In this document: piece after piece, positions 19,739 to 43,001 of the stretch
How positions within the stretch are numbered: position 1 is the first letter of the stretch
How the letters are laid out: each line of letters opens with the position of its first letter
Assembly: GCA_965248445.1 (NCBI GenBank)
Contig: CBDFJG010000001.1
Span: forward strand, 32,001-96,000
Length of the DNA: 64,000 bases
Direction of reading: 5' to 3'
Source: Planctomycetota bacterium
GTDB taxonomy: Bacteria; Planctomycetota; JAJSAM01; JAJVHW01
Notes under the pieces: generated by a model
The model's input: only the letters and a program-made list of their open reading frames with translations
Database searches by the model: none
Told to the model about the DNA's origin: nothing
Position numbers and translations under genes: made by a program

Positions 19739-19771
19739 CGGAGTCTCCGAAGGGTCAGAAGTCCGCCCGAA

Positions 19772-21124: not shown

Positions 21125-21219
21125 GCCGCCTCCTCGCTGCCGCTCTCCCACCATTGCTCCCCCAACGCAGGTGGATCGTAGCGGCGGCGGGCCGGGCCGC
21201 GGCACCCCGAAGCTCAGCG

Positions 21220-23301: not shown

Positions 23302-23537
23302 AGGCGAATCGTAGCAGCGCCCTCGGGGAGCCCCCTCTGCTACCGAGGGGCCGGGCAACTGCGGCAGTACGATGGATCTTCGCCGTCGCGGCGGGCCCGC
23401 CGTGTGCTGACCGGATCGGGGGTTTACCGGGTCGAAGGTGCGGCGGTCATCCGTCTTCCTGAGGGTCGGTCAGACTTGTTCCTGCGGTCAGACCGGGGAT
23501 TCTGGGACGGGAGGGATCGCTGCACCAACGGACCGGG

Positions 23538-24482
23538 ATGGACCTCGAGCCACGGGCGGGAGCCGGACTCACGCGCCGGGCGCTGCTGTCCGCGTCCATG
23601 GCGGCGATCGTCCTGAGCGCGTGTCGTCGCGCCCCGCTCGTGATCGGACGCCCGGGGGTCGAGCGGGGCGGCGCGTTCCGTCATCCGCGCGCGGTGGCTG
23701 CGTCGCACCACGGACTGGCAGTGCTGGATCGCACCGGGCGACTCCAGATCCTCGATCTCGACGGCAACTTCGTGCGGCAGTTCGCCGTGGCGCCGGACGG
23801 CAGCCGCCGCGGCCTACCGATCGGCGTGACCTGGCTCCCGGACGGAGCGCTGGCCGTCGCGGACACGCACCAAAGCCGCGTCCGCGTCTACGACACCTCT
23901 GGAGAGACACTCCGAACGGTCGGAGGATACGGACTCGAGCCCGGGCAGTTCCTCGCGCCCCAGCGCATCGTCCCCACCAGTGGCGGAGGCCTGCTCGTGA
24001 GCGATCACGGGCTGGGCAAGACCAATCGCGTACAGGTCCTCGACGCCAACGGCAACGCGCTCCTGGTCATGGGCGGCCCGGAGCCGGAGGACGGCGGCCT
24101 GGCCCGCCCGATGGGCGTGCTCGAGACCGACGCGGGTTATCTGGTCGCCGACCAGCGCGCGGGACTGGTGACGTTCGACTCGGCAGGAGAACTCTCGGGA
24201 CCTCCGAGCGGTTGGCCTGCGGAGTGGGACGGGATGACCTACGGACTGACGCGCGACGACGAGGGCTCGCTGTACGTGTCGGATCTCGCCGCAAACCGCA
24301 TCCTTCGTCTCGATTCGCAGGGGACCCCGACGGGTACCTTCGGCAGCCAGGGCCGCGACGCAGGACTGTTCGTGGACCCGTGGGACGTCCAATGGCACGC
24401 GGGACAGCTCTACGTGGCCGACTCGGGGAATCACAGGGTGCAGCGGATCGACGCGCAGCGCGCGGGGTGGAAGGACGTATGA
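23538..24482 (+). CDS. NHL-repeat beta-propeller protein, possible Tat-exported lipoprotein
   Basis: LTRRALL...IVLSAC signal; repeats G.F..P.......L.VAD....RV.V.D, e.g. LYVADSGNHRVQ. Confidence 0.85.
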   Translation: MDLEPRAGAGLTRRALLSASMAAIVLSACRRAPLVIGRPGVERGGAFRHPRAVAASHHGLAVLDRTGRLQILDLDGNFVRQFAVAPDGSRRGLPIGVTWLPDGALAVADTHQSRVRVYDTSGETLRTVGGYGLEPGQFLAPQRIVPTSGGGLLVSDHGLGKTNRVQVLDANGNALLVMGGPEPEDGGLARPMGVLETDAGYLVADQRAGLVTFDSAGELSGPPSGWPAEWDGMTYGLTRDDEGSLYVSDLAANRILRLDSQGTPTGTFGSQGRDAGLFVDPWDVQWHAGQLYVADSGNHRVQRIDAQRAGWKDV

Positions 24483-26698
24483 GCAGCAGTTTCCCCCGAA
24501 TCGGCGGGATGACGTTCCGGGCGATGACGGCCGGCGCGCTCGTCCGATCGCTGCTCGCGGCGCTGGTGCTTGCAGCGATCCCGGCCGCTGCGTTCGCGGA
24601 TGTGGACGTCCGCACCGAGATGGGCCACGCCGGCTCGTGGACCGAGGACGTGAACGCGCCGGTCACGGTGCAGCTGCGCAACTCGGGGAGTTCGCCGGTG
24701 GTCGTGCGCATCGCACTGAGCGATTCGGACCGCTTCTCCGGTGGCTCATACCGGCACGAGAGAAGCGTCGCACTCGGCCCGGGCGCCGTCCGCCGCGAGG
24801 TGTTCCTGGTCCCCGGGCCGACCACGTTCTCCTCGTCTCTCACAGTCGCTCTGACGACGGAGCCACGTACGACGATTCAGGCCGGCGGAACCGCGTTCAC
24901 TCGCGGAGTCGCGTCGGTTGCGGTGACCAACGAGCTCGCGCGCGGCGGACGGGTGCCGCTCTCGGGCCGCATCATCGGCGTCTTGGCGGAGGGCGGCGTC
25001 AGCGCGTTCGCCGACCCGCTGCGCCGCGCTTCCGGCGTGTGGGTAGAAGGCGACGAGATCGACACCGTGGCGGTCATCAGCGTCGATCCCGCAATGCTGT
25101 CGATCGCGCCGTTGGCGCTCGCGGGCCTCGACGCCCTCGTCGTCGTCGCTCCTTCGGCCGGATTCGCCGTCGACGCCCGGGAGCGAGAGGGCCTGCTGGC
25201 GTGGGTCGCGCTGGGCGGCCGGCTCGTGTTCGGTTCGCCGGAGGATCTCGCAGGCGTGGCCCGCGGACCACTTGGGCCAGAGCTTCCGGCCGACGTCACC
25301 TCGATCGGGCGGCAGTCGTACTCCGCGTTCCTGACCGCGCACACCGATCTGCTGCCCGCGAAGCTGCGTCCCAAGCTCCCCCCGAAGTCCACCGCCGGTC
25401 CGTTCGCGGAGCTGCGTCCACGGCCCGGCGGCCGCGCCACCGGCATCGCGTTCGGCGGCGGCCGCTCGCGGGTCGAGCGCGCGTTCGGCCAGGGAACGAT
25501 CGTGATGCTGGCGTACGACCTGCGCCCGGCACTCAGCGCCGCGGACGTGCAGGGCGGGCGGTACGCCGAACGGCTGGCGACAGAGATCACCGGCCGCGAG
25601 GCGCCGATGTCGTACGCCACGCTGCGTGACCAGGCGCTCGACTTCGGGATGTCCCGGCGCGTCGATGTGGACACCGAGTTGCAGAGCGTGCTCTCGCACG
25701 GGGCGTTCGCGCCACCGCCGTTCCCCCTGGTTCTGGGCGCGCTGCTGCTCTACGTCATCGCCGTCGGCCCGCTCGACTACCTCGTCCTCAAGCGCCTCGG
25801 GAAGCAGCGTCTGACCACCTTCACGTTCGCTGCCTCGGTGATCGTGTTCACGGCGCTCGCATACGGCGCCTCGTTCCTCGTCTTCGCCCGCGGCGCGGTG
25901 GTCAACCGCGTCGTGTTCGTGGACCTGGCCAGTGCCGGGGCCGACGGGCAGGCACTCGCGCGCGTCACGGATCTCGCCGGGTTCTACTCGCCGGTCGGCT
26001 CGACGACCGAGCTCAGCTACTCGTTGCCCGCCGCGATCGGCGGCTCGGGTCTGCCCGGATCCGTGTCCACCGGTGATATCGGGCGGTCGCTCGCCATCGC
26101 GATCGAGGGAACGGCTCCCACGCAGCCCCGGGCGCGAGTCGAGGTCGCGTTCCGGTCGCAGCGCAACGTGTGCTCCGTGCTAGCCGGCCCGAGCGCGCGG
26201 TCGGTCGACGTGCTCATCAAGCGGTCCGGCGCAGCGACTTCTGCAGAGGTCACAAACGGACTGCCCGTGGCACTCCACGAGGTCGCGCTCATCGCACCGA
26301 ACGGGCGCGGCCAGTACGACGTGGGCGACATCGCGCCAGGCGAGACGGTCACGATCCCGCTCGGCGCACTGAATCGCGCACGCGGCTCTCGATTCGCCAG
26401 CGGCCAGCAGGACCTCGGCGGAGGTGAGGCCGAGCGGGAGGTGAGGACGTTCCTCACCTTCCTCTCGCGAGTTGGCACGATCGGCATCGACGGCGCCCCG
26501 CCGCGCAAGAACGAGATGCCGGCCGTCGATCCCAATCGCGCGGTCCAGCTGGCGAAGTCGGGGATCGGGCACGGGGACGCGCTCGCCCGCGGACGCGCGC
26601 TCCTGATCGGGTTCGCGGACGAGTCGCCCTTTCCGCTTCCCGCGGATGACGAGAACGGCCGCACCTACGTCGTGGTGCGCAAGGAGATCGATCTGTGA
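24479..26698 (+). CDS. Membrane protein with a GATase-like domain, typical of ABC/MoxR operons
   Basis: Signal-like N-terminus; LAGLDALVV...LLAWVALGGRLV; LLLYVIAVGPLDYLVLKRLGK; ATGA overlap with the upstream gene. Confidence 0.75.
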   Translation: MSSSFPRIGGMTFRAMTAGALVRSLLAALVLAAIPAAAFADVDVRTEMGHAGSWTEDVNAPVTVQLRNSGSSPVVVRIALSDSDRFSGGSYRHERSVALGPGAVRREVFLVPGPTTFSSSLTVALTTEPRTTIQAGGTAFTRGVASVAVTNELARGGRVPLSGRIIGVLAEGGVSAFADPLRRASGVWVEGDEIDTVAVISVDPAMLSIAPLALAGLDALVVVAPSAGFAVDAREREGLLAWVALGGRLVFGSPEDLAGVARGPLGPELPADVTSIGRQSYSAFLTAHTDLLPAKLRPKLPPKSTAGPFAELRPRPGGRATGIAFGGGRSRVERAFGQGTIVMLAYDLRPALSAADVQGGRYAERLATEITGREAPMSYATLRDQALDFGMSRRVDVDTELQSVLSHGAFAPPPFPLVLGALLLYVIAVGPLDYLVLKRLGKQRLTTFTFAASVIVFTALAYGASFLVFARGAVVNRVVFVDLASAGADGQALARVTDLAGFYSPVGSTTELSYSLPAAIGGSGLPGSVSTGDIGRSLAIAIEGTAPTQPRARVEVAFRSQRNVCSVLAGPSARSVDVLIKRSGAATSAEVTNGLPVALHEVALIAPNGRGQYDVGDIAPGETVTIPLGALNRARGSRFASGQQDLGGGEAEREVRTFLTFLSRVGTIGIDGAPPRKNEMPAVDPNRAVQLAKSGIGHGDALARGRALLIGFADESPFPLPADDENGRTYVVVRKEIDL

Positions 26699-27651
26699 CG
26701 CCCGCCATCGAGACCCGTGGACTCACCAAGGTCTACCGCGGCGTCACCGCCGTGCGCGATCTGGACCTCGTCATCGAGGCGGGCGACGCATTCGGGTTCA
26801 TCGGACCGAACGGAGCCGGCAAGTCGACCACGATCAAGATCCTGGCGACGCTCGTCCGGCCGAGCGGGGGCAGCGCCAAGGTGAACGGGACGGACGTGCG
26901 CCTGTCGCCCGAGCGCGTGAAACCGCAGATCGGCTACATGCCCGACGTGCTGGGCGTTTACGACGACATGCTCGTCGGCGAGTACCTCGAGTTCTTCGCC
27001 GCGGCGTATCGGATCCGCGGGCAGGCACGGGCCAGCAAGATCGACGAGGTCCTCGAGCTGACCGACTTGACCGCGAAGCGCCACGCGCCCGTCATGGGGC
27101 TCTCCCGCGGAATGGGACAGCGGCTCGGACTCGCGCGCTGCCTGCTGCACGATCCGAACGTCTTGCTGCTCGACGAACCGGCCGCCGGTCTCGATCCGCG
27201 GGCGCGCATCGAGTTCAAGGAACTCGTGAGCCACTTGCGCGCGCTGAACAAGACGCTCCTGATCTCGAGTCACATCCTCGGTGAGATCGGAGAGATGTGC
27301 AACACGATCGGGATCATCGAGACGGGGCGTCTCCTATTCGCGGGACCGATCACCGAAGCACGCAAGCGGCTCGGCACCGAACGCGTGGTGCGGGTTCGCG
27401 TGCTCGAGGAGGCCGAGGACGATCGCGAGGTGAACGCGCTGACCGACATCCTGCGCGCACACCCGGAGGTCGAAGCGACCAAGCGCGGCGGTGAAGGAGA
27501 GCTGCTCGTCCGTGTGCGCACCGAGGTCGTCGACATCGCGTTCATCGCCAAGGAAGTCGTGCACGCCGGGCTCAAGCTGGTTCACCTCGAGGAGACGTCG
27601 CTCAGCGTGGAGGACATCTTCCTCCAGGTGACCAAGGGCGAGGTCGCGTAG
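26695..27651 (+). CDS. ABC transporter ATP-binding protein
   Basis: GPNGAGKST, LSRGMGQR, LLLDEPAAGLDP, LISSH. Confidence 0.95.
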   Translation: MTPAIETRGLTKVYRGVTAVRDLDLVIEAGDAFGFIGPNGAGKSTTIKILATLVRPSGGSAKVNGTDVRLSPERVKPQIGYMPDVLGVYDDMLVGEYLEFFAAAYRIRGQARASKIDEVLELTDLTAKRHAPVMGLSRGMGQRLGLARCLLHDPNVLLLDEPAAGLDPRARIEFKELVSHLRALNKTLLISSHILGEIGEMCNTIGIIETGRLLFAGPITEARKRLGTERVVRVRVLEEAEDDREVNALTDILRAHPEVEATKRGGEGELLVRVRTEVVDIAFIAKEVVHAGLKLVHLEETSLSVEDIFLQVTKGEVA

Positions 27652-27660
27652 CCCCGGTCG

Positions 27661-29331
27661 ATGAACCTGCCCCGGCCGGCCGCCTGGCGTATGCCGATCG
27701 ACGTGATCGCCGGCACCCGCGCCGTGTTCGAGCGAGACTTCATCGTCTACACGTCGCAACGGCGGTTCATCGTGATGCGCACGATCGCCATCGCGCTCGC
27801 CGCCGCGATCACCGCAGCCGTGCTCCTGGGCAACCTGCGCGCCGAGGCCGGCGCGATGGGCAAGTACATCATGACCAGCATGGCCATCACGGTCCCGGCG
27901 CTCGTGCTCCTGCTCGCCCCGGCGATGGCGGCGTCGTGCATCTCCGGAGAGCGCGCCGTGCGAACGCTCGACCTCGTCCTCGCAGCCCCGGTCACGCCGG
28001 CGTCGTTCGTTCTCGCCAAGTTCGCATCCAGACTCGCGACGGTGCTGGTGATCGTGTTCGCAACGCTGCCCGTGTCCGCACTCGCGCTGCTGTACGGAGG
28101 CGTCGCGCCCGCACTGTTCCTCGAGGTGTACCTCTTCTCGACCGCGTGCGCCGTGCTCGGCGTCGCAGCGGGCGTCGTCAGTTCCGCGTACTCGCGAGGC
28201 GTAGCCGCTTCCGTGCTACGCGCGTACTCGATCGCCATCCTGCTTCCGGGGCTCTACGTCGGGCTGCTCGTGGTCGCGGCCATCGTGCTGCGCAACACGG
28301 GTTGGATGAACAGCCCGGACTTCGAGGCCTTGGTGGCGCCGAGCCCGTACGGCGCGTGGACGTTCATGATCGTGCAGATTCAGGGCGTTGGACTCGCGAC
28401 AGGGGCCGTCGGCGCGGCGAGCGGGATCATGATCGGAGTGTCGGGGGTCTGTCTTCTCCTGGCGATGTGGCGCATGGGCCGCGAGTCCGAGGTGCGCACG
28501 GCGCCCGGGAGGGCAACGAAAGTGCGCAAGTCGCGCGTGCCGCTCGAGCGCCCGGCACTGGCGCGCGCCCTGCGTGGCAGCCTGCTCCTACGGCCGACCC
28601 GGGCCACCAAGCTGTTCACCATGGCGGTGCTGATCGCGTGGGGAATCGTGCTGTGGCTCGTCCTCGAAGAGGGGGGCAACGGCCAGGAGTGGGGACACCT
28701 CGGCATGCTCGTCTCGCTGACGGCGCTGCTGGTGCTACGCGTACTGGCGACGTCGCCGTCCCACCTCGCTGGGGCCCGGCGCGCCGGGAGCATGGCCCTC
28801 ATGCTCACGTCACCGGTCGGCCCAGCCGACGTGGTGCACGACGAGTTCGCGGCGGCGTACGGCAACATGTTGCCGCTCCTGATCCTGGGCGTGCTGCACG
28901 CCGCCGTCGCGACCTTCTTCGGACCGCTGCTGCATGAGGCCGCTCTGGCGTGGCTCGCGACAACGACGGTGTACATCGGCCTGGCCGCCGCGATCGGGCT
29001 GCGCATCGGCGCGACTGCAACGTCCGCCGGCCGCGCGGTCCTGCGCACGTTCGCCGTTTTCCTGGGAGGCAGCGTCCTGATCGGTGTCGCCGGCATCGTG
29101 GTCGGGATGGCGACGAACTCGATGAGTGAAGAGTCCATGTTCTGGTTCGGCGCTGCCCCCGTCGTCACCCTCGTCGGCATGCCGCTCTCCACGCTGGGCG
29201 TGACGCTGTCCACCGGCCGCGATGACCTGGCCGTTCCGATCGCGTGCGGCGGCTGGCTCATCCTGCATGGGCTGTGCATCCCGTTCCTGCTGCGTGCCGC
29301 CGTCTCGAAACTGGGCCAGAACGCGGAATGA
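27661..29331 (+). CDS. ABC-2-type permease (duplicated membrane domain)
   Basis: Many TM helices; LLAPAMAASCISGERAVRTLDLVLAAPVTP...VLAKF motif. Confidence 0.82.
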   Translation: MNLPRPAAWRMPIDVIAGTRAVFERDFIVYTSQRRFIVMRTIAIALAAAITAAVLLGNLRAEAGAMGKYIMTSMAITVPALVLLLAPAMAASCISGERAVRTLDLVLAAPVTPASFVLAKFASRLATVLVIVFATLPVSALALLYGGVAPALFLEVYLFSTACAVLGVAAGVVSSAYSRGVAASVLRAYSIAILLPGLYVGLLVVAAIVLRNTGWMNSPDFEALVAPSPYGAWTFMIVQIQGVGLATGAVGAASGIMIGVSGVCLLLAMWRMGRESEVRTAPGRATKVRKSRVPLERPALARALRGSLLLRPTRATKLFTMAVLIAWGIVLWLVLEEGGNGQEWGHLGMLVSLTALLVLRVLATSPSHLAGARRAGSMALMLTSPVGPADVVHDEFAAAYGNMLPLLILGVLHAAVATFFGPLLHEAALAWLATTTVYIGLAAAIGLRIGATATSAGRAVLRTFAVFLGGSVLIGVAGIVVGMATNSMSEESMFWFGAAPVVTLVGMPLSTLGVTLSTGRDDLAVPIACGGWLILHGLCIPFLLRAAVSKLGQNAE

Positions 29332-29424
29332 GGGCACCGAACCCCCGGGCTGCGCGTCTGTTAATCTGAGAGGGGGCAGTTCCGCTGCCCCACCGACCTG
29401 CCGATATCAGCCTCAGGAGGGCGT

Positions 29425-31128
29425 ATGTCACGGACCGATCGGCTCCTCGCGCGCGTACGGGCGCGCCTCGTGCTCGTGGGAGCGGCTACCGACCTCCAGC
29501 TCGGCCTCGTGGCCGCTGCGGCCGTCGTACTGCTCGCCGTGCTCGGCCGCGCGTTCGCCGTCGTGGTCCTCGACTGGTCCGTGATCGCGGCGATCGCCGT
29601 GATCGCGCTGGTCATGCTGCCGCTCATCGGCCTGATCCGCCGCCGCCGGTCGCCCGCCGCACTGGCCGCTCACGCGGACCGCGGGCTCGCTCTCTCCGAG
29701 CGCGTCTCCACGGCACTCTGGGCCGAGCGCAACGCCGACGTCGCCGGACCGCTGGCCAGCGAGGTTCGCCGCGACGCCGACGAGACGGCTGCAGAGATCG
29801 ACGGTGCGCACATCCGGCGGGCGTTCCAGCCGCGCCTCGAGCGGCGGCCTCTGCTGGCGGCCGCGATGCTCGTCGCAGTGACCGGCGCGCTGTTGTTCGT
29901 CGGACCGGGCGAGGCATCCGTGATCGAGTCCGGCGAGGACCGCGCCGCGCGTCTCGCCGACGAAGAGCGGATCGCGGACGTGGCACGCCGCATGGCACAG
30001 GCCGCGAAGCGCGTCGAGGACCTTGCCGGGGAGCGCAAGCAGGACGATCTCGCGAAACTCGCCGCCGAGATTGCGAAGCAGACACAGCGGATGTCCGCTG
30101 CCCCCCCACAGCGCCCGAAGGCGCTGCAGAAGTTGAATGAACTGGCCGATCAGGCCCGTGCGACGGCGCGCAAGCGCTCCGGCATGAAGACGCCGACCAC
30201 CGAAGCGGAGGCGCGCGAGGGCAACAAGCAGCTCGCCGATCTGCTCCGGAAGATGAGCGCCTCGGGACTCGAGAACCTGCAGAAGGACCTGAAGCAGCTC
30301 ACCGACCGGCTCGACGCCGGCGAGAAGGGCGACTCGCAGGTCAGTGCCGACGACATGCGCGCGATGGCCAACCGCCTCGATGCGCTGGCTCGCGCCATGA
30401 AGAACGCGGACGCGCTCGGCATGAAGGACCTGCGCGAGCAGCTGCAGTCGATCGGCAACGAGGACCTGCTGCGGAAGATCGCGGAGCGCATGCGCGAAAT
30501 CGCCTCGAAGATGGAGGCCGGCGAGGACTACCAGAATCTCGAGAGTCCCGACGCCAACGACCTGGACATGTCCCAGATGACGCGGGAGGAGCTCGAGGAG
30601 CTTCTCAAGCAGCTCGACGAACTCGCCAACATGGAAGACCTCGCCGAGATGCTCCGCCAGGGCAGCCGCGAGATGTCCGGCGGCCGGCGCATGCGCATCC
30701 CGCAGCCCGGTGGGACCTGAAGCGGCGGTGACGGTTCAGGCGGGACCTGAACAGGCGGCGGATCATCGTCGTGCAGTTCGTGCGGCGCAAGTGGAGCGGG
30801 AGCGGGCCAGGGCAGCGGTCAGGGATCGGGAGCCGGCAGTGGCGGCGGCATGGGCGGACCGGGCACCGGAAACGGCGGCACGGCCCCATTCTCAAACGAC
30901 AAGAACGGCACCAGTCCCGACACCATCCGTGGGCAACTCGATCCGACCGGGCGCATCTCGGTGACCACGTTCCGCGGCCTGCCGCGACCCGGTGAGATCA
31001 CCCCGGAGTTCCGGGCGGAGGTCGAGCGTGCGCGCGCCGATGCACAGGCTCCCTTGGAGTCCGAAGTCATCCCGCGCCGCTATCGCGACGGTATCCGACG
31101 CTACTTCGACGACCTCGAAGACGAGTAA
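29425..31128 (+). CDS. Membrane-anchored coiled-coil protein with a Gly/Ser/Cys linker; one 567-aa ORF if two in-frame TGA codons (30718, 30748) are recoded
   Basis: ORFs 29425-30720 and 30850-31128 share a frame. The link reads PGGT*SGGDGSGGT*TGGGSSSCSSCGASGAGAGQGSG. N-terminal ADRGLALSERVSTAL and C-terminal IPRRYRDGIRRYFD resemble the two ends of single proteins in MoxR/vWA operons. Confidence 0.7.
30734..30787 (+). promoter_or_regulatory. Two SECIS-like hairpins, one downstream of each in-frame UGA
   Basis: GTTCAGG-CGGGA-CCTGAAC (30734-30752, 7 Watson-Crick pairs) and CGTCGTGC-AGTTC-GTGCGGCG (30767-30787, 8 pairs including G-U). The loops start 21 and 25 nt after their UGA and have G at loop position 2. 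Confidence 0.45.
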
Positions 31129-31131
31129 CGA

Positions 31132-32778
31132 TTGAACGCCGTCTTCGAGCGGGACTACGTCGCGTTCAGTTCGTCCCTGCGATTCCTGCTCCTGCGCGGC
31201 GGATTCGCCGCAGCGATGGCGCTGCTGTTCTTCGTCCGCATAGCCGGCGCGTACTCGGGGAAGGACTGGAGTGACGTCGGCTCCACGTTGCTGACGACCG
31301 CCGTCGCGCTCGGCACCGTGCTGCTCGGCGTCGCGGCCCCCGCGTCGTTCGGCACCGTCTTCGTCCACGCACGCGCACGCAACAGCCTGCCGATCCTGCT
31401 TGCGTCCCCGCTGACGCCACTCGGCATCAGCGCCGGTGCGTTCCTCTCGCGCGCAGGACTCCTCGCGCTCCTCGTCCTGGCGGTTGCACCGCCGATGGCG
31501 CTGGCTCTCGTGTTCGGCGGAGTCCGCGGCGCTCAGCTCGTCGATGCGCTCTTCGCGGTCACGTCGACGATGCTGCTACTCGGGGCTCCGGCGTTCGTCA
31601 TCTCGGCGTACGCGCAACGCACTTCCTCGGCGGTCGTCACGGCGTATCTGATTGCGGTCTCCGTCCTCGCGGGCACATGGTTCATGGGAACCTGGATCAC
31701 GAAGGTGACGAGCGATGCCGCCCTCGCCGCCGCGGTCTCACCGCTGCACGCCTACGACGCGGCGATCTCGTTCGAGCGGCTGCCTCCGGCGGCTTTCGGA
31801 TTCTTGTCCGGTCCGTTCGTGCTGCTCGTGCTGTCCCTCTGCGTCGCTGCGGGCGCGATCTTCGTCGCCGCGTTGCGGCTGCGCCGCGAGGCAACCGGCG
31901 CCGTCTCGCGGACCGATCTCCTGACGCGCCGCCAGTGCCGTCCGCTCCGTCGCGAGAACCCGGTGCTCGACCACGAACTGCGACGGGGCAAGTTCCTGCG
32001 CCGCCGCAGCCCCGCGCACGGCCTGCTGGTACTCATGCTGCTCGCTGAAGTGGCGTTCTTCGCGTACGCGCGTTCGGCCGGGACATGGAGCGACATCAAC
32101 TCGCACCTCGGGCTGCTCGCGTTCGAGCTGTTCCTCCTCGTGCTGGCGGTCGCCGCCGCGGGCGCCACCGCGCTGGCACAAGACAAGGAGGCCAACACGC
32201 TCGAGTTGATGCGCGCGGCACCATTGACACCGGCGCAGGTCGTGGTCGGGAAGCTTGCCGGTGTCCTGCGCACCCTGCTGCCCTGTCTGCTGGTGCCGTT
32301 CGTGCATCTCCTGATCGCAGCCCACCACGGTGTGTTCTCGTGGCTGGCGGCACCCGCCGTGGCACTCACCGGCGTGGTCGCGCTCGGTGCGTGGGCGATC
32401 GCCGGGCTCCACCAGTCCCTCGAGCAACGGCTGCCCCGCCGGGCGGTCTCGCGCACCACGGCGCTCCTCGGCATCGTGGGAATCATCGGCGCCGTCACGC
32501 TCTACGGCCCCGCGTCGGGCCTGATGCGCGCCTTCGACGACTACATCGGCCTCTCGGCGTCCCTCGGCGCCAATCCCGTGGCCACGATGCTGCTGCCGGC
32601 CACACTGCTCCGGACCGGGGGATCGAGCGCGGAGATGACGGTCGTACCAGCTCCAGACGCCGAAAGCCTCGCGGCCGGTGCGATCGCCCTCGGCATCTGG
32701 TTGATGCTGCACCTCATCGCGGCATACTGGACGTACCGACGTCTGTTCGCGCTGTATCGCACGAGGTACGAGGGATGA
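31132..32778 (+). CDS. ABC-2-type permease (second)
   Basis: NAVFERDY start paralogous to the 27661 gene; ALAQDKEANTLELMRAAPLTPAQVVVGKLAG. Confidence 0.82.
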   Translation: MNAVFERDYVAFSSSLRFLLLRGGFAAAMALLFFVRIAGAYSGKDWSDVGSTLLTTAVALGTVLLGVAAPASFGTVFVHARARNSLPILLASPLTPLGISAGAFLSRAGLLALLVLAVAPPMALALVFGGVRGAQLVDALFAVTSTMLLLGAPAFVISAYAQRTSSAVVTAYLIAVSVLAGTWFMGTWITKVTSDAALAAAVSPLHAYDAAISFERLPPAAFGFLSGPFVLLVLSLCVAAGAIFVAALRLRREATGAVSRTDLLTRRQCRPLRRENPVLDHELRRGKFLRRRSPAHGLLVLMLLAEVAFFAYARSAGTWSDINSHLGLLAFELFLLVLAVAAAGATALAQDKEANTLELMRAAPLTPAQVVVGKLAGVLRTLLPCLLVPFVHLLIAAHHGVFSWLAAPAVALTGVVALGAWAIAGLHQSLEQRLPRRAVSRTTALLGIVGIIGAVTLYGPASGLMRAFDDYIGLSASLGANPVATMLLPATLLRTGGSSAEMTVVPAPDAESLAAGAIALGIWLMLHLIAAYWTYRRLFALYRTRYEG

Positions 32779-35690
32779 CCGGCCTGCTCGCGCTGTCCAT
32801 CGGATTGGGACGCCCGATCTGGCTCCTCGTCCTTTTGTTGGCGCCGCTGTTCGCGTGGTACGCGCTCCGGGGCTCCGGCGGGCTGTTCGGATCCGGCGGG
32901 CGCCGCCGCGCAGGTGACGTGGCCGCAGTCGCCGCACGATCCGTGCTGCTGCTCCTGGTCGCTCTCGCGCTTGCCCTTCCGACGATCCGCCGGGACGCAG
33001 CCTTCCGCGCCGTGGCGTACGTCCTGGACGTGAGCGAGAGCGTCCCGGAGGACGCTTCGGCCATCGGGCGCGAGTTCGTGCGCCGTAGCGCGGAGTTGCG
33101 TGGAGAGGACGACGACGCCGCGCTCATCGTGTTCGCGGACGGCGCCGCCGTCGAGGCACCGTTCACGCGCATCTCGTATTCCGAGCGGCTTGAGCCGATC
33201 CCGATCGACCCCGAGCACATCGCCTCCGTCGTCCCGCGCGGCGAGAGCGACATCGCCGGCGCGCTCCAGATCTCACGCGCGAGCTTCCCGCCCGGCGGCG
33301 CTCGCCGGATCGTGCTGGTGACGGACGGGAACGAGACGCGCGGCAGCGCGGTGGAGACCGTGCGCGACCTCGTCGACGGCGGCGCCGACGTGCAGGTCGT
33401 GCCGCTCCGATTCGAGCGCGAGCGCGACGTACTGGTCCAGAAACTGGTCGTCCCCGCCACCGTCGAGGAGCGCCAGCCCGCCCCCGTGCGCGCCGTGATC
33501 GAGAGCACGCACGCCGGCGTGGACGCGCAGGTGCGGTTCATCGTGGACGGCGAGGAGGTCTACTCGTCGAACGAGACGCTGCGTGAGGGCCGCAACGTCT
33601 ATGAGATGGGCTATCCGTTCGAGGGCCAGGGATATCACCGCGTAGAGGTGCGCGTCGATCCTGTGCTCGACGGCGATCCGCGCAACAACGTGGGGATGGC
33701 CGCAACGCGGGTGAGAAGCACCGGCCGCGTGCTGGTCGTCACGACCGCCGACTCATCCCACCTCGCGTCCGCTCTGAACGACGACCTCGACGTTCCCGTG
33801 GACGCAGCCGGCGTGGCCGCGCTCCCCGTCGCTGCGGGCGGCTACGTGGACTACGACTGCGTCGTGCTGGAGAACGTTCCGGCCTTCGCCATGAGCGCCA
33901 CACAGCGACGCGTGCTCGCGGCCGCCGTGCGCGACCTCGGTGTGGGCCTCGTCTGCATCGGCGGCAACGACTCCTACGGCCCCGGCGGCTACGCCGGCAC
34001 GCCGCTCGAAGAGGTCTTGCCGGTCTCGTGCGACATTCGGCAGAAGCGCGTGCTCCCGAGCGGCGCGCTCGTCGTGATCCTGCACACGTGCGAGTTCCCC
34101 GGCGGAAACACCGCTGCTCGGCAGATCACCGTCGCCGCGATGCAAGCGCTCTCGTCGAACGACGAGTTCGGCGTGCTTCTGTACACGGGAGTCGTGGAGT
34201 GGCTCATCCCGCTCGAGCGATTGGGCGACAAGCGCCGCCACATGTCGACGATCAAGAACGCAGCGCCGGCGGACATGCCGAGCTTCGACGACACGATGAT
34301 CAAGGCTGAGAAGGCGCTCGCCGAGTGCACGGCCGCGACCAAGCACATGATCATCATCTCGGACGGCGATCCGACGCCGCCGAACAAGAAGCTCGCCGCG
34401 CGCATCAAGGCGCAGCGCATCACCATGTCCACCGTGTGCGTCGATCCGCACATGCCCGAATCGAGCGCGGTGATGAAGAGGCTCTCGAGCGAGGCGGGCG
34501 GCCGGCACTACGACATCTCATCGAAGAACCTCTCGCGCCTCCCCCAGATCTTCATCAAGGAAGCCGTGACCGTCCGCCGCTCAGCCTGGCGCAACGAAGC
34601 GTTCACGCCGGCGCTCTCCGGCACTCACGTGATGTTGCGAGGCTTCAAGGACTCCGGCTTCCCGCAGCTGGGCGGCTACACCGTCACGTCCCTGAAGCCC
34701 CGCGCCGAGCAGCTGATGACCGCGCAGCACGACGATCCTCTGCTCGCCACCTGGCGGCACGGCCTCGGGGAGGTGACGGCGTGGACGTCGGACGCCGGCT
34801 CGGGACGCATGAAATGGGCCGGGCCGTGGCTCGGCTGGGGGGGCTACAGCCGGTTCTTCGGACAGATGGTGCGGGCGACCGCCCGTGCACTCGAGCGATC
34901 GACCGCACACGTCGTGGTGGACGTCGAGGGCGGCCGCGCGCACGTGGTTCTCGACGCCCTCACACCGGACGGGTCTTTCGAGAACGGCCTGCGGGTGACC
35001 GGGCTCGCCGTGCGACCGGACGGCGAGACGGTCGAGTTCGAGGTCGCGCAGTCCGGACCCGGCCGGTACGAGGGGCGGTTCCCCGCCAGCGACGTCGGCA
35101 CGTACGTCGCGTCGCTGCTGATCCGCTCGCCCGACGGCGACGCCGACGAGAAGCCCCGCCAAGCGCTGGCGGCGGCGTCCGTCGCCTACTCCGCCGAACA
35201 CCGCGCGCAGCGCTCGAACGAACGACTGTTCGCAATGCTCGAGACAGCGGGCGCGACCATCGTGGATCTCGACGCCGACGTCCCGGCAGACGGTGGCGAG
35301 ATCGCGGACCCCGCGCTCGCTCCTTGGTCCGGACCGTTGCTCTCGTCGGAGGAGCCGGTCCCACTGTGGCCGTGGATCGCTGCGCTCGCGGCGCTGGTGA
35401 TGGTCATCGACGTCGCCGTTCGGCGGCTGCGGCTCAAGCTGCCGCAGCGCATCAAGAAGACGGCCGAGGCCGCCAAGTCCCTGCCTGCAAAGGCGGCTCG
35501 GCTGTCCGAGCGGATGGCCCGGCCGGGCGGCGCCTACGTGCCACCGACCGAGACGTCGGCGGCGCAGGCTGCGGCACCCAGCGAGAAGAAACCGGATGCG
35601 ACCACGGAGAGCGGAACGGCACCGGCCAGCGGCCTGCTCTCCGCGAAGAAGAAGGCCAAGAAGAAGCAGTCGTGGGAGGAGAACCAGTGA
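32775..35690 (+). CDS. Large membrane vWA-domain protein with a GATase1-like domain
   Basis: YVLDVSES MIDAS, RRIVLVTDGNET, IGGNDSYGPGGYAGTPLEEVLPV, second vWA (IIISDGDP), DPLLATWRHGLGEVTAWTSD. Confidence 0.88.
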   Translation: MTGLLALSIGLGRPIWLLVLLLAPLFAWYALRGSGGLFGSGGRRRAGDVAAVAARSVLLLLVALALALPTIRRDAAFRAVAYVLDVSESVPEDASAIGREFVRRSAELRGEDDDAALIVFADGAAVEAPFTRISYSERLEPIPIDPEHIASVVPRGESDIAGALQISRASFPPGGARRIVLVTDGNETRGSAVETVRDLVDGGADVQVVPLRFERERDVLVQKLVVPATVEERQPAPVRAVIESTHAGVDAQVRFIVDGEEVYSSNETLREGRNVYEMGYPFEGQGYHRVEVRVDPVLDGDPRNNVGMAATRVRSTGRVLVVTTADSSHLASALNDDLDVPVDAAGVAALPVAAGGYVDYDCVVLENVPAFAMSATQRRVLAAAVRDLGVGLVCIGGNDSYGPGGYAGTPLEEVLPVSCDIRQKRVLPSGALVVILHTCEFPGGNTAARQITVAAMQALSSNDEFGVLLYTGVVEWLIPLERLGDKRRHMSTIKNAAPADMPSFDDTMIKAEKALAECTAATKHMIIISDGDPTPPNKKLAARIKAQRITMSTVCVDPHMPESSAVMKRLSSEAGGRHYDISSKNLSRLPQIFIKEAVTVRRSAWRNEAFTPALSGTHVMLRGFKDSGFPQLGGYTVTSLKPRAEQLMTAQHDDPLLATWRHGLGEVTAWTSDAGSGRMKWAGPWLGWGGYSRFFGQMVRATARALERSTAHVVVDVEGGRAHVVLDALTPDGSFENGLRVTGLAVRPDGETVEFEVAQSGPGRYEGRFPASDVGTYVASLLIRSPDGDADEKPRQALAAASVAYSAEHRAQRSNERLFAMLETAGATIVDLDADVPADGGEIADPALAPWSGPLLSSEEPVPLWPWIAALAALVMVIDVAVRRLRLKLPQRIKKTAEAAKSLPAKAARLSERMARPGGAYVPPTETSAAQAAAPSEKKPDATTESGTAPASGLLSAKKKAKKKQSWEENQ

Positions 35691-36709
35691 GCCCGATCGA
35701 GATGCCAGCGGATGCGCGTGAGCGTGCCGAGTTGTTCCGGGACCGCTACGGCACCGTCCGCGCCGAGGTCTCGAAGGTGATCGTCGGACAGGACGACGTG
35801 GTCGACACCGTCCTGCGCGCGTTCTTCGCCGGCGGCAACGTGCTGCTCGAAGGCGTACCCGGCCTCGGGAAGACCATGCTGGTGCGGACACTGTCCGAGG
35901 CGCTGCAACTGCGGTTCAAGCGAATTCAGTTCACGCCCGACCTGATGCCCGCGGACGTCGTCGGCACGACCATCGTGACCGAGGACGACGACGGGAAACG
36001 CGTGATGGTCTTCCGCAAGGGTCCGATCTTCGCCAACCTCGTGCTGGCGGACGAGATCAACCGCGCAACTCCCAAGACACAGAGCGCGCTGCTCGAGGCG
36101 ATGCAGGAACAGAGTGTCACGGTGGGCGGCGAGACGCGTCAACTCGAGAAGCCGTTCCTCGTCATCGCGACACAGAACCCGATCGACATGGAGGGCACGT
36201 ATCCCCTGCCGGAGGCGCAACTCGACCGATTCATGGTCAAGGTGCTCGTGGGATACGGCACACGGGAGGACCTGAACGAGGTCATCCGGCGCACAACCCG
36301 CGGGGACTTCCCGCGAGCCGCGAAGGTCATGGACGCCGGGGAGGTCGTGCAATGGCGCGACTTCGTCCGCGACGTCGCAGTGGCCCCGCACGTGGCCGAC
36401 TTCGCGACGCGTCTGGTCATCGCGACCCACCCGGGGTCGACGTACGCCCCGGACGAGGTGAACCACTACGTGCGGTTCGGGGCGTCGCCCCGCGGCGCGC
36501 AGGCGCTGATCCTCATGGCCAAGGTGCGCGCGCTCCTCGAGGGCCGATACAACGTCTCGTTCCGTGATGTAGCGCGCGAGGCGAACTCTGTCCTGCGCCA
36601 CCGGCTCATCCGCAACTTCGAGGCGGAGGCGGACGGCATCGAACAGGAGCAGATCGTGGCCGAGGTCGTTCGCGTGACGAAACAAGAAGACCAACTCGCC
36701 TCCGCCTAG
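35687..36709 (+). CDS. moxR: MoxR-family AAA+ ATPase
   Basis: LLEGVPGLGKT, RIQFTPDLMPAD, LADEINRATPKTQSALLEAMQE, ATQNPIDMEGTYPLPEAQLDRF, GASPRG. Confidence 0.95.
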   Translation: MSPIEMPADARERAELFRDRYGTVRAEVSKVIVGQDDVVDTVLRAFFAGGNVLLEGVPGLGKTMLVRTLSEALQLRFKRIQFTPDLMPADVVGTTIVTEDDDGKRVMVFRKGPIFANLVLADEINRATPKTQSALLEAMQEQSVTVGGETRQLEKPFLVIATQNPIDMEGTYPLPEAQLDRFMVKVLVGYGTREDLNEVIRRTTRGDFPRAAKVMDAGEVVQWRDFVRDVAVAPHVADFATRLVIATHPGSTYAPDEVNHYVRFGASPRGAQALILMAKVRALLEGRYNVSFRDVAREANSVLRHRLIRNFEAEADGIEQEQIVAEVVRVTKQEDQLASA

Positions 36710-36721
36710 CGAGCCCCGGTC

Positions 36722-37597
36722 ATGCCTCTTCTGGACCGCGACTTCCTGGCCCGGCTGGAGCGACTCGAGATCGTGTCGCGGCGGCTGCGTCGTGGATCCA
36801 CGCGCGGCGAGCGCCGATCGCTTCGCCGAGGGTCGTCCGTGGAGTTCGCGGATCACCGGCAGTACGGCGCCGGTGACGATCTTCGCTTCCTCGACTGGAA
36901 CCTCTACGCGCGCCTCGACCAGCTGATGACGAAGCTGTTCTACGACGAGGAGGACCTGCAGATCTTCCTGGTCGTCGATCGCAGCGCGTCGATGGAGTTC
37001 GGCGAACCCACGAAGGCGCTCGTGGCGAAACGGATCGCCGCGGCGCTCGGCTACGTCGCACTGCTCGGCCAGAACCGCGTGAACCTGTTTACCCCGGGCG
37101 AGGGCGGCGACGTCGAGGTCCGTCACCTGCGCGGGCGGATCGCCTCGCAACGACTGTTCGATGCGCTCGAGCGCGCCCCCGTGGGCGGCGCGGCCGGGCT
37201 GGACGACTCGCTCAAGCGGTACATCGGGACACGGCGGCCGCGCGGGGTGATCGTCCTCGTCTCCGACTTCCTCCACCCCGACGGCGCGTGGGAGCACCTG
37301 CGCGCGATCGTGCGAGGCGGGTTGGAGCCGTTCTGCGTCCGCGTGCTTGCCCCGCAGGAGGTCGAGCCCGATCTCGAGGGCGACCTGCGGCTGGTCGACG
37401 TCGAGGAACGCGGCGCGGTGGACGTCAGCATCTCCCCGTCACTGCTGGAGCGATATCACGCTGCGCGGCTCGACTATGACCGCCGGCTGGATCAGTTCTG
37501 CCGTAGCCGGCAAATCGTGCTGGCCGAGACGCACACCGACATGCCGATCGAGATCCTCGTGCTCGAGATTCTCCGGCGCAAGGGTCTGCTGCGGTGA
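36722..37597 (+). CDS. DUF58-family protein
   Basis: GSSVEFADHRQYGAGDDLRFLDWNLYAR, VDRSASM, LVSDF; follows moxR. Confidence 0.92.
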   Translation: MPLLDRDFLARLERLEIVSRRLRRGSTRGERRSLRRGSSVEFADHRQYGAGDDLRFLDWNLYARLDQLMTKLFYDEEDLQIFLVVDRSASMEFGEPTKALVAKRIAAALGYVALLGQNRVNLFTPGEGGDVEVRHLRGRIASQRLFDALERAPVGGAAGLDDSLKRYIGTRRPRGVIVLVSDFLHPDGAWEHLRAIVRGGLEPFCVRVLAPQEVEPDLEGDLRLVDVEERGAVDVSISPSLLERYHAARLDYDRRLDQFCRSRQIVLAETHTDMPIEILVLEILRRKGLLR

Positions 37598-39450
37598 GCC
37601 TCCTCTTCCCGCTCGGAATCGCCGCGCTCGGCGCACTCGTGCCGCTGATCGTCCTGTACATCCTCAAGCAACGGCGTGAGGACTACCCGATCTCCGCAGC
37701 GTTCCTGTGGCAGCACGCACTGGAGGATCTGCGCGCGTCGTCTCTGTTCCAGCGGTTGCGCACGCCGCTCCTCCTCTTCCTGCAGGCGCTCGCCGTGATC
37801 CTGTTCGCGCTGGCGGCAGCGGGCGCGTCGCTGGATCTCGACCTCGGCCGCGAACCGCGACGAACGATCCTGGTCATCGACCGCAGTGCGAGCATGCGCG
37901 CCACCGACGAGGACGGGGGTTCGCGATTCGAGGTCGCGATCGAACTCGCCCATGATGCCGTCAGCGGACTGCGCACCGGCGACGAGATGATGATCATCGC
38001 GTTCGACGATGAGGCGCAGGTGATCACATCGTTCCTGGACGAAGGGGACGTGCTCGACGACGCCCTTGACCGGCTCGAAGCGCGCGATCTGGCGAGCGAA
38101 CCCGTCGGCGCCTTGCGCCTTGCGGACTCGTTCGCACAGGCGTCTCCGGGGTTCAAGGCCGAGGCGATCGTCATCTCCGACGGTGCAGTCGAGGGCGAGT
38201 TACCGCTCCTCTCCTGCGAGACCCGCTTCGCGCGCGTTGGCAAAAGCGATGAGAACCAGGGCTTCGCCGACGTGCACCTGGAGCAGATGCCCGGCGAAGC
38301 CGCGCAGCTGTTCGTCAGGATCGTCAACGGTGACGACGCGCCCGTGTCGCGCAGCGTGCTCGTGCGTCGCAACGGAGAGGTCACCGACGCGCGCCAGGTG
38401 GATCTCCCCGCGAGCGGCGACGTCGCGACCTTCTTCGAGTTCGAAGAGCCCGAGGGGGACGAGGTCCAGATCCTCGAGGTCGCGCTGGACGGCGAGGACA
38501 TCCTCGCGAGTGACAACCGGGTTCGGCTGCTGCTCCGCCCGGCGGTGCCGAGGACCGGTGTTCTCGTCCGTCCGTCGAAGACCGTGTACCTCGATCCGCG
38601 CAAGCTGGAAGCGCTGCACCCGGGGCTCGCGATGATCGAGGCGACTCCCGACGACGCGGCAGGTCTTGTCGCCGCAGGCGGCGTGGATCTCGTGATCTAC
38701 GACGGAGTGTCGCCCGCCGTCATCCCCGAGGTCGCCGCGCAGATCTACATCGGTGCCCTGCCCCCGGACAGCGGTCTCATCTCCGTCGGCATGCTGGAAC
38801 TGCCCAGCGTCATCGATTGGGACCGCACGCACCCGGTGACGACGCGCTGTCAGTTCGACGACGTCTGGGTCCTCGAAGCGTCCGATCTGAGCGGCCATGA
38901 GCGCTCCCAGCCACTGGTCGAGACCACGGGTGACCCGCTCGTACTGCTCACACCCGTCCCGGGCCGCGAGGTCCTGGTGATCGCCTTCGATCCGTCGAGG
39001 TCGAACTTGCCGCTGAAGCTCGCCTGGCCACTCATGCTCGCCAACTCGCTCGACCATCTGTTGCGCGGCGTGCAACGCACGGGCGAGGAGCCACTGCACG
39101 AGACCGGTGCGCCGATCCACGACGATGAGCCGTTCACCGTTGTCGCTCCCGGAGGAGAGAAGCACGATTCGAAGCCGTCCCACGATGGGCGCGCCGTGTT
39201 TCGCGAGACCTACGACGCGGGCGTCTACTCGATGACGCGGGACGACGGCAGCGAGGACCTGCGGGCGTTCGCGTTGCTCAACGCCGCCGAGGTGCGGGTG
39301 CGGCCGCGCGAAGAGCTCGTGCTCGGAGGCGACAAGGTCGCGTCGGCCGGCGGCGGGCTGCGGCGCAACGTCCTGCTGCGCGATCCGCTGCTCCTGCTCG
39401 TCCTCGGCCTGCTGATCCTCGAGTGGGCGGTGTGGTGCGGCCGCCGCTAG
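37594..39450 (+). CDS. BatA-like N-terminus plus vWA-domain membrane protein
   Basis: LLFPLG....LVPLIVLYILK......S..FLW; VIDRSASM; C-terminal LLILEW. Confidence 0.88.
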   Translation: MSLLFPLGIAALGALVPLIVLYILKQRREDYPISAAFLWQHALEDLRASSLFQRLRTPLLLFLQALAVILFALAAAGASLDLDLGREPRRTILVIDRSASMRATDEDGGSRFEVAIELAHDAVSGLRTGDEMMIIAFDDEAQVITSFLDEGDVLDDALDRLEARDLASEPVGALRLADSFAQASPGFKAEAIVISDGAVEGELPLLSCETRFARVGKSDENQGFADVHLEQMPGEAAQLFVRIVNGDDAPVSRSVLVRRNGEVTDARQVDLPASGDVATFFEFEEPEGDEVQILEVALDGEDILASDNRVRLLLRPAVPRTGVLVRPSKTVYLDPRKLEALHPGLAMIEATPDDAAGLVAAGGVDLVIYDGVSPAVIPEVAAQIYIGALPPDSGLISVGMLELPSVIDWDRTHPVTTRCQFDDVWVLEASDLSGHERSQPLVETTGDPLVLLTPVPGREVLVIAFDPSRSNLPLKLAWPLMLANSLDHLLRGVQRTGEEPLHETGAPIHDDEPFTVVAPGGEKHDSKPSHDGRAVFRETYDAGVYSMTRDDGSEDLRAFALLNAAEVRVRPREELVLGGDKVASAGGGLRRNVLLRDPLLLLVLGLLILEWAVWCGRR

Positions 39451-39718
39451 CGGTCGCGTCGCGTCACTCGGGTCGCTAAGGCGCCCCTCGCGCCTCTCCT
39501 TGCCCGCGTGTCTCCCTCCTACTCGGACTCCGTCCGCTACGGAGGAGGTCGGTCACGCCGCTTGCTATGCAACCGTCGCGCCCTCCCGATTCGGACTCGA
39601 ACAGACAGCTCGCCGTAGGGGCGGGCCGATGCGCCCACCCGCGGCCGGAGCAGCCCACGATGACTGGGCGGGCCGGGATTCCCGTGGGCGCGCAGCCCAC
39701 GGGACGGAACATCACTCC

Positions 39719-42926: not shown

Positions 42927-43001
42927 TCCGCGGTAGCTCAGTGGTAGAGCGGCCGGCTGTTAACCGGCGGGTCGTAGGTTCGAATCCTACCCGCGGAGCC
43001 A
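42927..43001 (+). tRNA. tRNA-Asn(GTT)
   Basis: TCCGCGG acceptor, TAGCTCAGTGGTAGAGC D-arm, GCCGG-CTGTTAA-CCGGC anticodon arm, GTAGG-TTCGAAT-CCTAC T-arm, CCGCGGA-G-CCA. Confidence 0.97.

Follow-up and report, generated by a model that had tools for sequence, protein, structure and literature searches.

A reading frame with two internal TGA codons

The window analyzed here is a 64,000-nucleotide (nt) stretch of a Planctomycetota genome (contig CBDFJG010000001.1; G+C content, ~0.69), and the element in question is a membrane protein gene within an operon that also encodes MoxR, DUF58, and von Willebrand factor A (vWA) domain proteins. The frame opened by ATG 29425 meets TGA at 30718-30720 (codon 432; UGA1) and again at 30748-30750 (codon 442; UGA2), after which it remains open until TAA 31126-31128, such that reading TGA as selenocysteine (Sec, U) yields 567 residues with U432 and U442. 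An earlier interpretation of this DNA, made from its letters alone (the sequence-only reading), had proposed that a 431-amino-acid (aa) open reading frame (ORF) and a 92-aa ORF starting at ATG 30850 share this frame, separated only by two TGA codons in identical context. Re-reading the sequence recovered this layout, with GGGACCTGAA at each TGA. The comparative analyses below make it very probable that both "stop" codons specify selenocysteine, in a Planctomycetota membrane protein family that has no name yet.

The sequence-only reading had allowed that the TGAs might be errors. Positions 30300-31200 were identical (0 differences, 0 gaps) in contigs assembled separately from four runs, three of them unbroken, although the four runs derive from one sample, possibly the genome's source sample; these independent per-run assemblies retained both TGAs. 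The flanks of UGA1 form an imperfect direct repeat of the UGA2 unit, with 18 of the first 22 nt identical by hand count. A 10-codon duplication is deduced from the protein alignment together with this 18/22-nt match; Tandem Repeats Finder reported no repeat in 30600-30900. Coordinates of the gene, its parts, and its neighbors are collected in Table 1.

Table 1. Features of the proposed selenoprotein gene and its operon, in window coordinates (TM, transmembrane; GC3, G+C at third codon positions; AF2, AlphaFold2).
Feature	Position	Strand	Remarks
Shine-Dalgarno AGGAGG	29415..29420	+	4 nt 5' of ATG 29425; read from sequence
Proposed selenoprotein gene, complete	29425..31128	+	567 codons; UGA at codons 432 and 442; true stop TAA 31126-31128
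N-terminal membrane module, residues 1-160	29425..29904	+	TM hairpin, ~60-aa helical loop flanked by Arg runs, third TM helix (hydropathy, K/R counts)
Helical-bundle/coiled-coil domain, residues 170-417	29932..30675	+	AF2; predicted non-cytoplasmic
Gly/Ser-rich segment, predicted disordered, residues 421-517	30685..30975	+	Contains both candidate Sec codons and CSSC
UGA1 (U432)	30718..30720	+	Within a 10-codon insertion unique to the window genome among 8 family members (alignment)
Hairpin 1, GUUCAGG-CGGGA-CCUGAAC	30734..30752	+	Loop starts 20 nt after UGA1; 3' arm includes UGA2; centroid structure
UGA2 (U442)	30748..30750	+	Ancestral Sec codon of the GGTU motif; TGA in 7/7 aligned family sequences, partial sequence L018, and the sister family
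Hairpin 2, CGUCGUGC-AGUUC-GUGCGGCG	30767..30787	+	Loop starts 24 nt after UGA2; homologous to relatives' GUCGUGC-GGUCU-GCACGGC
CSSC, residues 450-453 (C450, C453)	30772..30783	+	C450 invariant in family; 5' arm of hairpin 2 made up of these codons
Conserved C-terminal helix pair, residues 527-567, with IPRRYRDGIRRYF	31003..31125	+	Alignment, AF2
DUF4350-containing protein	24479..26698	+	Start inferred from GC3 rise
ABC transporter ATPase (DrrA/GldA-like)	26695..27651	+	Pfam/NCBIfam scans
ABC-2-type permease-like protein	27661..29331	+	Ends in TGA
ABC-2 permease-like membrane protein	31132..32778	+	Starts 4 nt past the selenoprotein TAA
Two-vWA + GATase1-like protein, ~970 aa	32775..35690	+	ATGA overlap with preceding gene
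MoxR AAA+ ATPase (AAA_3)	35687..36709	+	
DUF58 protein	36722..37597	+	
BatA_N + vWA membrane protein	37594..39450	+	

Conserved in-frame TGA codons, hairpins, and a Sec-competent host

A six-frame search that read through stops in 41 related genomes found the protein in 21. Exactly one in-frame TGA, in a GGTU motif, was present in 7/7 genomes of the same family (45-55% identity), two TGAs were present in 5/5 genomes of a sister family of the order (~30-34% identity), and the protein was TGA-free in three of the four genomes of a third family. The motif of the window's family reads GG[SA]GGTU[SAT]GGG(S)SCG[LTS]HG, to which the window copy adds the 10-codon insertion repeating GGTU just before it, and that of the sister family reads CQNCGLTGGTU...GTU. 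Across the phylum, the protein family was detected in 171 of 401 sampled Planctomycetota genomes (E ≤ 1e-10). All 24 of the TGA-bearing matches fetched from outside the order placed between one and three U in the same Cys/Gly-rich segment (one relative carries CPSU...GU...GU), and an in-frame TGA at the homologous site was seen in at least 37 genomes. This recurrence is far beyond chance. The spacer 3' of the TGA stayed in frame, stop-free, and furnished with conserved motifs such as SCGLHG in 35/35 TGA-form genes examined.

Cysteine occupies the position of U in several relatives. Locus L074 has GKGURGCEG where L075, L076, and L078 have GKECQKC, GEQCGGC, and GKQCEGC (UxxC versus CxxC); L091 has CPDCLNGTUQAKSGGTU where L095 has CPDCLAGTCQARSGGTU, with L096 likewise Cys; and L089 GYURGC corresponds to L082 GECRGGC. 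No Cys form is known in the window's own family among its close database relatives. The segment contains two Cys, in many cases as LDGxxCxxCxGxxDY, in 33 of the 131 full-length public members. A tree built from the N-terminal 72% of 43 sequences (rows biased towards Sec forms; partial and duplicate rows excluded) required six changes of Sec status, at least four of them forced by well-supported branches, and united the window's family and the sister family in a single all-Sec clade (support, 96). Judged from these sequences, the UGA of U442 was inherited from the common ancestor of the two families.

The host carries the machinery that such decoding calls for. Scanning the assembly (5.4 Mb, 4 contigs) recovered a tRNA-Sec (Rfam, 68.3 bits versus a cut-off of 47) that ARAGORN also called as SeC with anticodon tca, the only UCA-anticodon tRNA among 56 tRNAs. 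SelA scored 425.7 bits, a SelB wing domain was found within a 744-aa ORF, and SelD (TIGR00476) scored 386.1 bits outside the window at G000:C3:1080793-1081719 (L038). Because the TIGR00476 match contains one in-frame TGA, we regard this SelD as a Sec-type selenophosphate synthetase. TGA is otherwise an ordinary stop here, terminating 22 of the 33 long, high-GC3 ORFs of the window, including the gene directly 5' of the selenoprotein gene. SelA was present in 290 of the 401 sampled phylum genomes, in 17/17 genomes of the order, and in 37/37 genomes with the TGA form. By hand count, ~50 of the 171 family-positive genomes lacked SelA; 36 SelA-negative genomes had a listed match, none with an in-frame stop (0/36). 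Related genomes are not independent, and we therefore treat the association between SelA and the TGA form as support rather than as a test statistic.

Hairpins resembling a selenocysteine insertion sequence (SECIS) were assessed with a positional test, which scored contiguous stems whose loop starts 12-27 nt after the codon and used 19,031 other codons of the same genes as controls. This count was adopted because GC-rich Gly codons fold anyway; folding energy was tried as SECIS evidence and dropped, given weak z-scores (-1.2 to +1.0) and ranks that were only mildly shifted. A stem score of ≥6 was reached behind 42 of 53 in-frame UGAs versus 9.4% of controls, a score of ≥7 behind 27/53 versus 3.5%, and a 4- to 5-nt loop starting GGU on a stem of at least 4 bp (5-9 bp found) behind 23/53 versus 164/19,031 (0.86%), these counts not being independent in that the control codons share genes with the UGAs and the genes are related.

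Where a gene has several UGAs, the GGU-type loop sits behind the last one, and stem sequences vary between lineages with the pairing maintained. Relatives in the window's family have the hairpin GUCGUGC-GGUCU-GCACGGC, and alignment columns with an invariant residue also had an invariant codon in 3/3 cases within the hairpin versus 20/138 protein-wide. The nearest relatives share the apex GGUCUGCAC and the 18-nt spacing with the SECIS of Escherichia coli fdhF (NC_000913.3), in which the TGA is followed after 18 nt by GGTCTGCAC; L015 has the identical 9-mer at the identical distance. In the window, hairpin 1 has a perfect 7-bp stem (score, 7.0; 3.5% of controls reach 7). Hairpin 2 scores 6.5 (9.4% of controls reach 6), contains three wobble pairs, and is weaker than the relatives' version. 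An Rfam scan of 30600-30900 returned chance matches only (E ≥ 0.5).

The upstream UGAs of L019, L020, L021, L024, L091, and L092 are followed by non-GGU hairpins built from the next UGA's GGGACCUGA context. The second UGA falls at the stem/apical-loop junction of the first UGA's hairpin in L021, L091, and L092 (e.g., ...ACCU/GAGC...) and in the 3' arm in the window. The arrangement of hairpin 1 would supply an RNA-level rationale for the repeated TGA context.

A profile search of 1.84 billion cluster representatives (clusters at 50% identity) returned 10,352 matches at E ≤ 1e-3, 5,035 at E ≤ 1e-10, and 1,373 at E ≤ 1e-30. Fifteen of the best 150 matches were shorter than 470 aa, and 13 of these terminated at ...GGT or ...GGG, the residue preceding U. 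Likewise, a collection of 5.8 billion proteins held 12 non-self close relatives, 11 of them 392-441 aa long with 75-76% query coverage and the twelfth a frameshifted call. Gene finders truncate at the UGA, and the most conserved domain of the family is missing from annotation for that reason. The only label on close database relatives was "hypothetical protein," and a search with a Cys-form homolog retrieved unnamed planctomycete clusters only. One record (P0017, 635 aa) was considered as an undivided close relative and rejected as a frameshifted gene call; its translation leaves the frame for an Arg-rich tail just ahead of the GGTU site, owing to a frameshift or assembly error in the record.

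Pfam gave no family match for the window protein or 15 aligned relatives, and NCBIfam gave none for 16 family members at E ≤ 0.01 besides weak coiled-coil matches (0 families for the window protein). The sequence-only reading knew of no described Sec family in a MoxR/vWA context, and none surfaced in these databases, in the catalogued families consulted, or in our literature searches. None of the 119 prokaryotic selenoprotein families in Table 1 of a May 2026 review fits (PMC13188914; the families of Haft and Tolstoy 2025 were compared through that table and NCBIfam), and the terms "Planctomycet," "MoxR," and "von Willebrand" are absent from the accessible text of that review and of the BSepDB article (PMC13326102). 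Full-text searches yielded no selenoprotein report tied to MoxR, von Willebrand/BatA, DUF58, or aerotolerance. Table S9 of a 2016 study (PMC4807772) lists a "hypothetical" planctomycete Sec candidate whose gene is split by TGA, for which a SECIS is predicted and Rhodopirellula has a Cys homolog. This candidate, given there with neither sequence nor description, could belong to the protein family described here. What emerges is a new family of selenoproteins rather than a novel type of system.

Membrane architecture and operon context

An AlphaFold2 model computed from a 102-sequence alignment had a mean predicted local distance difference test (pLDDT) score of 80.5. Its N-terminal helices span residues 3-43, 51-72, 77-133, and 140-159, with block-mean pLDDT mostly ≥94 (88 in blocks 41-50 and 151-160). 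The first two (3-43 and 51-72) make up a hydrophobic hairpin, segment 77-133 is flanked by RRRRS and RLERR, and 140-159 is a third hydrophobic helix. Applied to the K/R distribution, the positive-inside rule suggests that the N terminus and the 73-140 loop are cytoplasmic and the last 400 residues outside. The Gly/Ser-rich segment (32 G and 14 S per 100 residues) is predicted to be unstructured, with pLDDT <50 across residues 430-517, which include U432, U442, C450, and C453. The best-conserved part of the family, the C-terminal helix pair, lies 3' of both UGAs, and its P550 and F561 are invariant among the 102 sequences.

Foldseek comparison of the model with PDB found no fold match at E ≤ 1e-3, and a profile search against PDB sequences gave coiled-coil/linker noise with no meaningful relative. 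No thioredoxin-like fold was seen around the UxxC/CxxU motif, which lies in a disordered loop of an all-helical model with no thioredoxin-type Pfam match. The ~160-residue N-terminal membrane module also begins longer ORFs (364-1092 aa) in the window genome and relatives (e.g., G000:C4:1704361-1704834, L066); it appears to be a membrane anchor common to a broader set of proteins.

The operon is tightly packed, its stops and starts overlapping or nearly abutting. Homologs in four of six distant genomes lie on the same strand upstream of vWA-GATase1-like, MoxR, and DUF58 genes, and a BatA-vWA gene follows in L102 and L106, the two in which the fetched stretch extends far enough. Three of these four syntenic genomes have Sec forms and one a Cys form; the other two of the six have the homolog elsewhere. 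In L102, L103, and L106, NHL-repeat propeller proteins, not an ABC-2 permease, stand between the homolog and the vWA-GATase1-like gene, and L103 has an ABC ATPase fused to NHL repeats as well as a solute-binding protein. Since NHL proteins replace the ABC-2 permease in other lineages, the transporter part of the cluster is variable.

The same adjacent set of MoxR AAA_3, DUF58, and BatA_N-vWA genes occurs in the Bat/MoxR-DUF58-vWA operons of Bacteroides, Leptospira, Borrelia, and Rhizobium. Unlike these, the planctomycete cluster adds the Sec/Cys protein, an ABC-2 transporter, and a ~1000-aa vWA/GATase1-like protein; no BatC, BatD, or BatE was seen among the operon ORFs scanned, where no search was aimed at these genes. 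Bat clusters are described as envelope-associated and of unknown function, with a role in periplasmic reducing power as an unproven hypothesis (PMC5700661).

Around the operon, a gene for a radical SAM protein with a CofH/MqnC C-terminal region (39500-40858, + strand) starts 50 nt past the BatA-vWA gene and may belong to the operon. Upstream lie a gene for a 712-aa TPR protein on the opposite strand (21220-23358, - strand) and a 957-aa ORF (18308-21181, + strand) with no Pfam match.

Candidate function and competing readings

These data describe one gene with a conserved recoded UGA that has Cys counterparts, SECIS-like hairpins at the spacing on which bacterial SelB relies, and a Sec-competent host. 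Homologs either retain TGA in an unbroken frame or carry Cys in its place, and selA, selB, selD, and a UCA tRNA are all present, which supports the central claim of the sequence-only reading that this is a selenoprotein. Its suggestion that the U..U..CxxC segment is a metal or redox site of the MoxR machine is plausible. Its view of a two-Sec protein held in part: U442 is conserved in the family and the sister family, whereas the first U is recent and genome-specific, not a family feature. Overall, it is highly likely that the 431-aa and 92-aa ORFs constitute one 567-residue selenoprotein gene, with Sec decoding and a redox or metal-binding loop as set out here.

We propose that SelB and Sec-tRNA(Sec) would read UGA2 through the hairpin at 30767-30787. 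UGA1 would have arisen via a 10-codon duplication of the GGTU unit and be read through the hairpin at 30734-30752; the GGGACCUGAA context of UGA2 supplies the 3' arm of this hairpin, an arrangement shared with the two-Sec relatives. The protein would have a cytoplasmic N terminus and three TM helices, placing in the periplasm the long helical domain, the flexible Gly-rich loop with U432, U442, C450, and C453, and the conserved C-terminal helix pair. For the loop we prefer a role as selenol/thiol redox arm, a soft-metal-binding site being the alternative, and the protein may act in a membrane complex of the operon's products (ABC-2 transporter, vWA-GATase1-like, MoxR, DUF58, and BatA-vWA).

Several observations weigh against this proposal, in addition to the dependence among hairpin counts noted above. 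The window loops AGUUC and CGGGA deviate from the GGUC type, and the folding energy of the window hairpins is no better than that of shuffled sequences (z, -0.88 and +0.29; for L015 and L012, -1.20 and +1.02), with a sliding-window energy rank of ~0.5 for the window sites against a median of 0.25 over sites. The Sec forms sampled were chosen deliberately, and the alignment of distant pairs inside the Gly-rich segment is uncertain. Because 30 of the 131 full-length public members have no Cys in the segment, the Cys/Sec motif is not needed for the core role of the family. The periplasmic location and redox role of the loop are predictions from sequence. Finally, since UGA1 occurs only in this genome, it may terminate a share of ribosomes.

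The competing reading that survives best, a real though doubtful possibility, accepts the selenoprotein and has the Sec/Cys loop bind a soft metal or metalloid (Cu, Zn, Hg, As, or an Fe-S cluster) rather than act as a redox arm. Cys/Sec clusters including CxxC...GTU...GTU, CPTGKCPGGKCKGGC, and CxxCxxxxxC look like metal sites, and vWA domains, present in the operon's partner proteins, have metal-dependent MIDAS (metal ion-dependent adhesion site) motifs. The 2026 review lists GxGU, GVGU, UxxU, and CU motifs for proteins that it connects with metal or metalloid handling (PMC13188914). However, the operon has no metal-handling gene, and the number and spacing of Cys/Sec are highly variable, down to the members that have none.

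It is unlikely that only UGA2 works as a Sec codon, with UGA1 mostly terminating to give chiefly a 431-residue truncated protein from a decaying copy. UGA1 is absent from the other seven family members, and its hairpin has neither a GGU-type loop nor a folding energy better than shuffles. Yet in relatives with two or three Sec, the upstream UGA is regularly followed by a non-GGU hairpin whose 3' arm is taken from the next GGGACCUGA unit, a pattern that the window fits with its perfect stem; moreover, the frame 3' of UGA1 is intact and the C-terminal domain fully conserved. We infer Sec decoding at both UGAs of the window, less certainly at UGA1, which is a recent duplication with a non-canonical hairpin and may be read inefficiently.

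The possibility that the TGAs are true stops, with the spacer non-coding and the 92-aa ORF translated separately from ATG 30850 (two genes or a pseudogene), is very improbable. Public gene callers do split the gene this way, 13 of the 15 short representatives and 11 of the 12 close database relatives stop there, and ATG 30850 exists. Against this stand the in-frame, stop-free spacer with its conserved motifs, the Met of ATG 30850, which belongs to a GMGGPG motif also found in undivided Cys forms, the TGA-free homologs, which are single genes, and the confinement of TGA forms to SelA-positive genomes with SECIS-like hairpins behind the TGAs. Slighter still is the chance that a suppressor tRNA or reassignment turns UGA into a Gly, Trp, or Cys codon, or that a double frameshift bypasses it: Gly would be tolerable in the Gly-rich context and another-frame ORF (30710-30964) is open across the site, but TGA terminates neighboring genes, the sole UCA-anticodon tRNA is tRNA-Sec, unambiguous homolog pairs show Cys rather than Gly or Trp, and the zero frame has conserved motifs on both sides.

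The proposed selenoprotein resembles E. coli fdhF-type SelB/SECIS genes in its in-frame UGA with a downstream stem-loop, its Cys homologs, and the accompanying selA, selB, selC, and selD. Unlike fdhF, it is an unrelated membrane-anchored helical protein with Sec in a predicted disordered loop, not an enzyme active site, and family members carry as many as three UGAs at intervals of 8-15 codons, with non-GGU hairpins that include the next UGA behind the upstream ones. Thioredoxin reductase bears a C-terminal Gly-Cys-Sec-Gly arm, with Sec beside Cys on a flexible, Gly-flanked segment. By functional analogy only, the window loop could likewise form a selenenylsulfide and carry electrons, although the window protein, unlike thioredoxin reductase, has no flavoprotein domain and is predicted to be periplasmic. 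UxxC, CxxU, and Gly-flanked U (GxGU of UXX-star family 2, GVGU of HgcB) are likewise found among the catalogued selenoprotein families in Table 1 of the review (PMC13188914).

With confidence somewhat short of even, we further suggest an unreported, widespread family of planctomycete envelope selenoproteins with one to three Sec on a flexible periplasmic loop and a chain of hairpins, each upstream SECIS built around the next UGA and only the last of GGUC type. Its Sec forms are missing from selenoproteome counts in a phylum where SelA is this common. MoxR-DUF58-vWA clusters are widespread, and a Sec/Cys subunit offers a testable handle on their biochemical role, "periplasmic reducing power" versus others; if the proposal is true, no chemically reactive element would have been identified in MoxR/DUF58/vWA systems before this loop, which would point to a redox or metal-handling function for them. 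Two or three UGAs spaced 8-15 codons apart with overlapping hairpins would also make a natural test case for SelB on consecutive SECIS elements. Elsewhere in the window, the sole tRNA gene is a tRNA-Asn (GTT) at 42927-43001 (+ strand).

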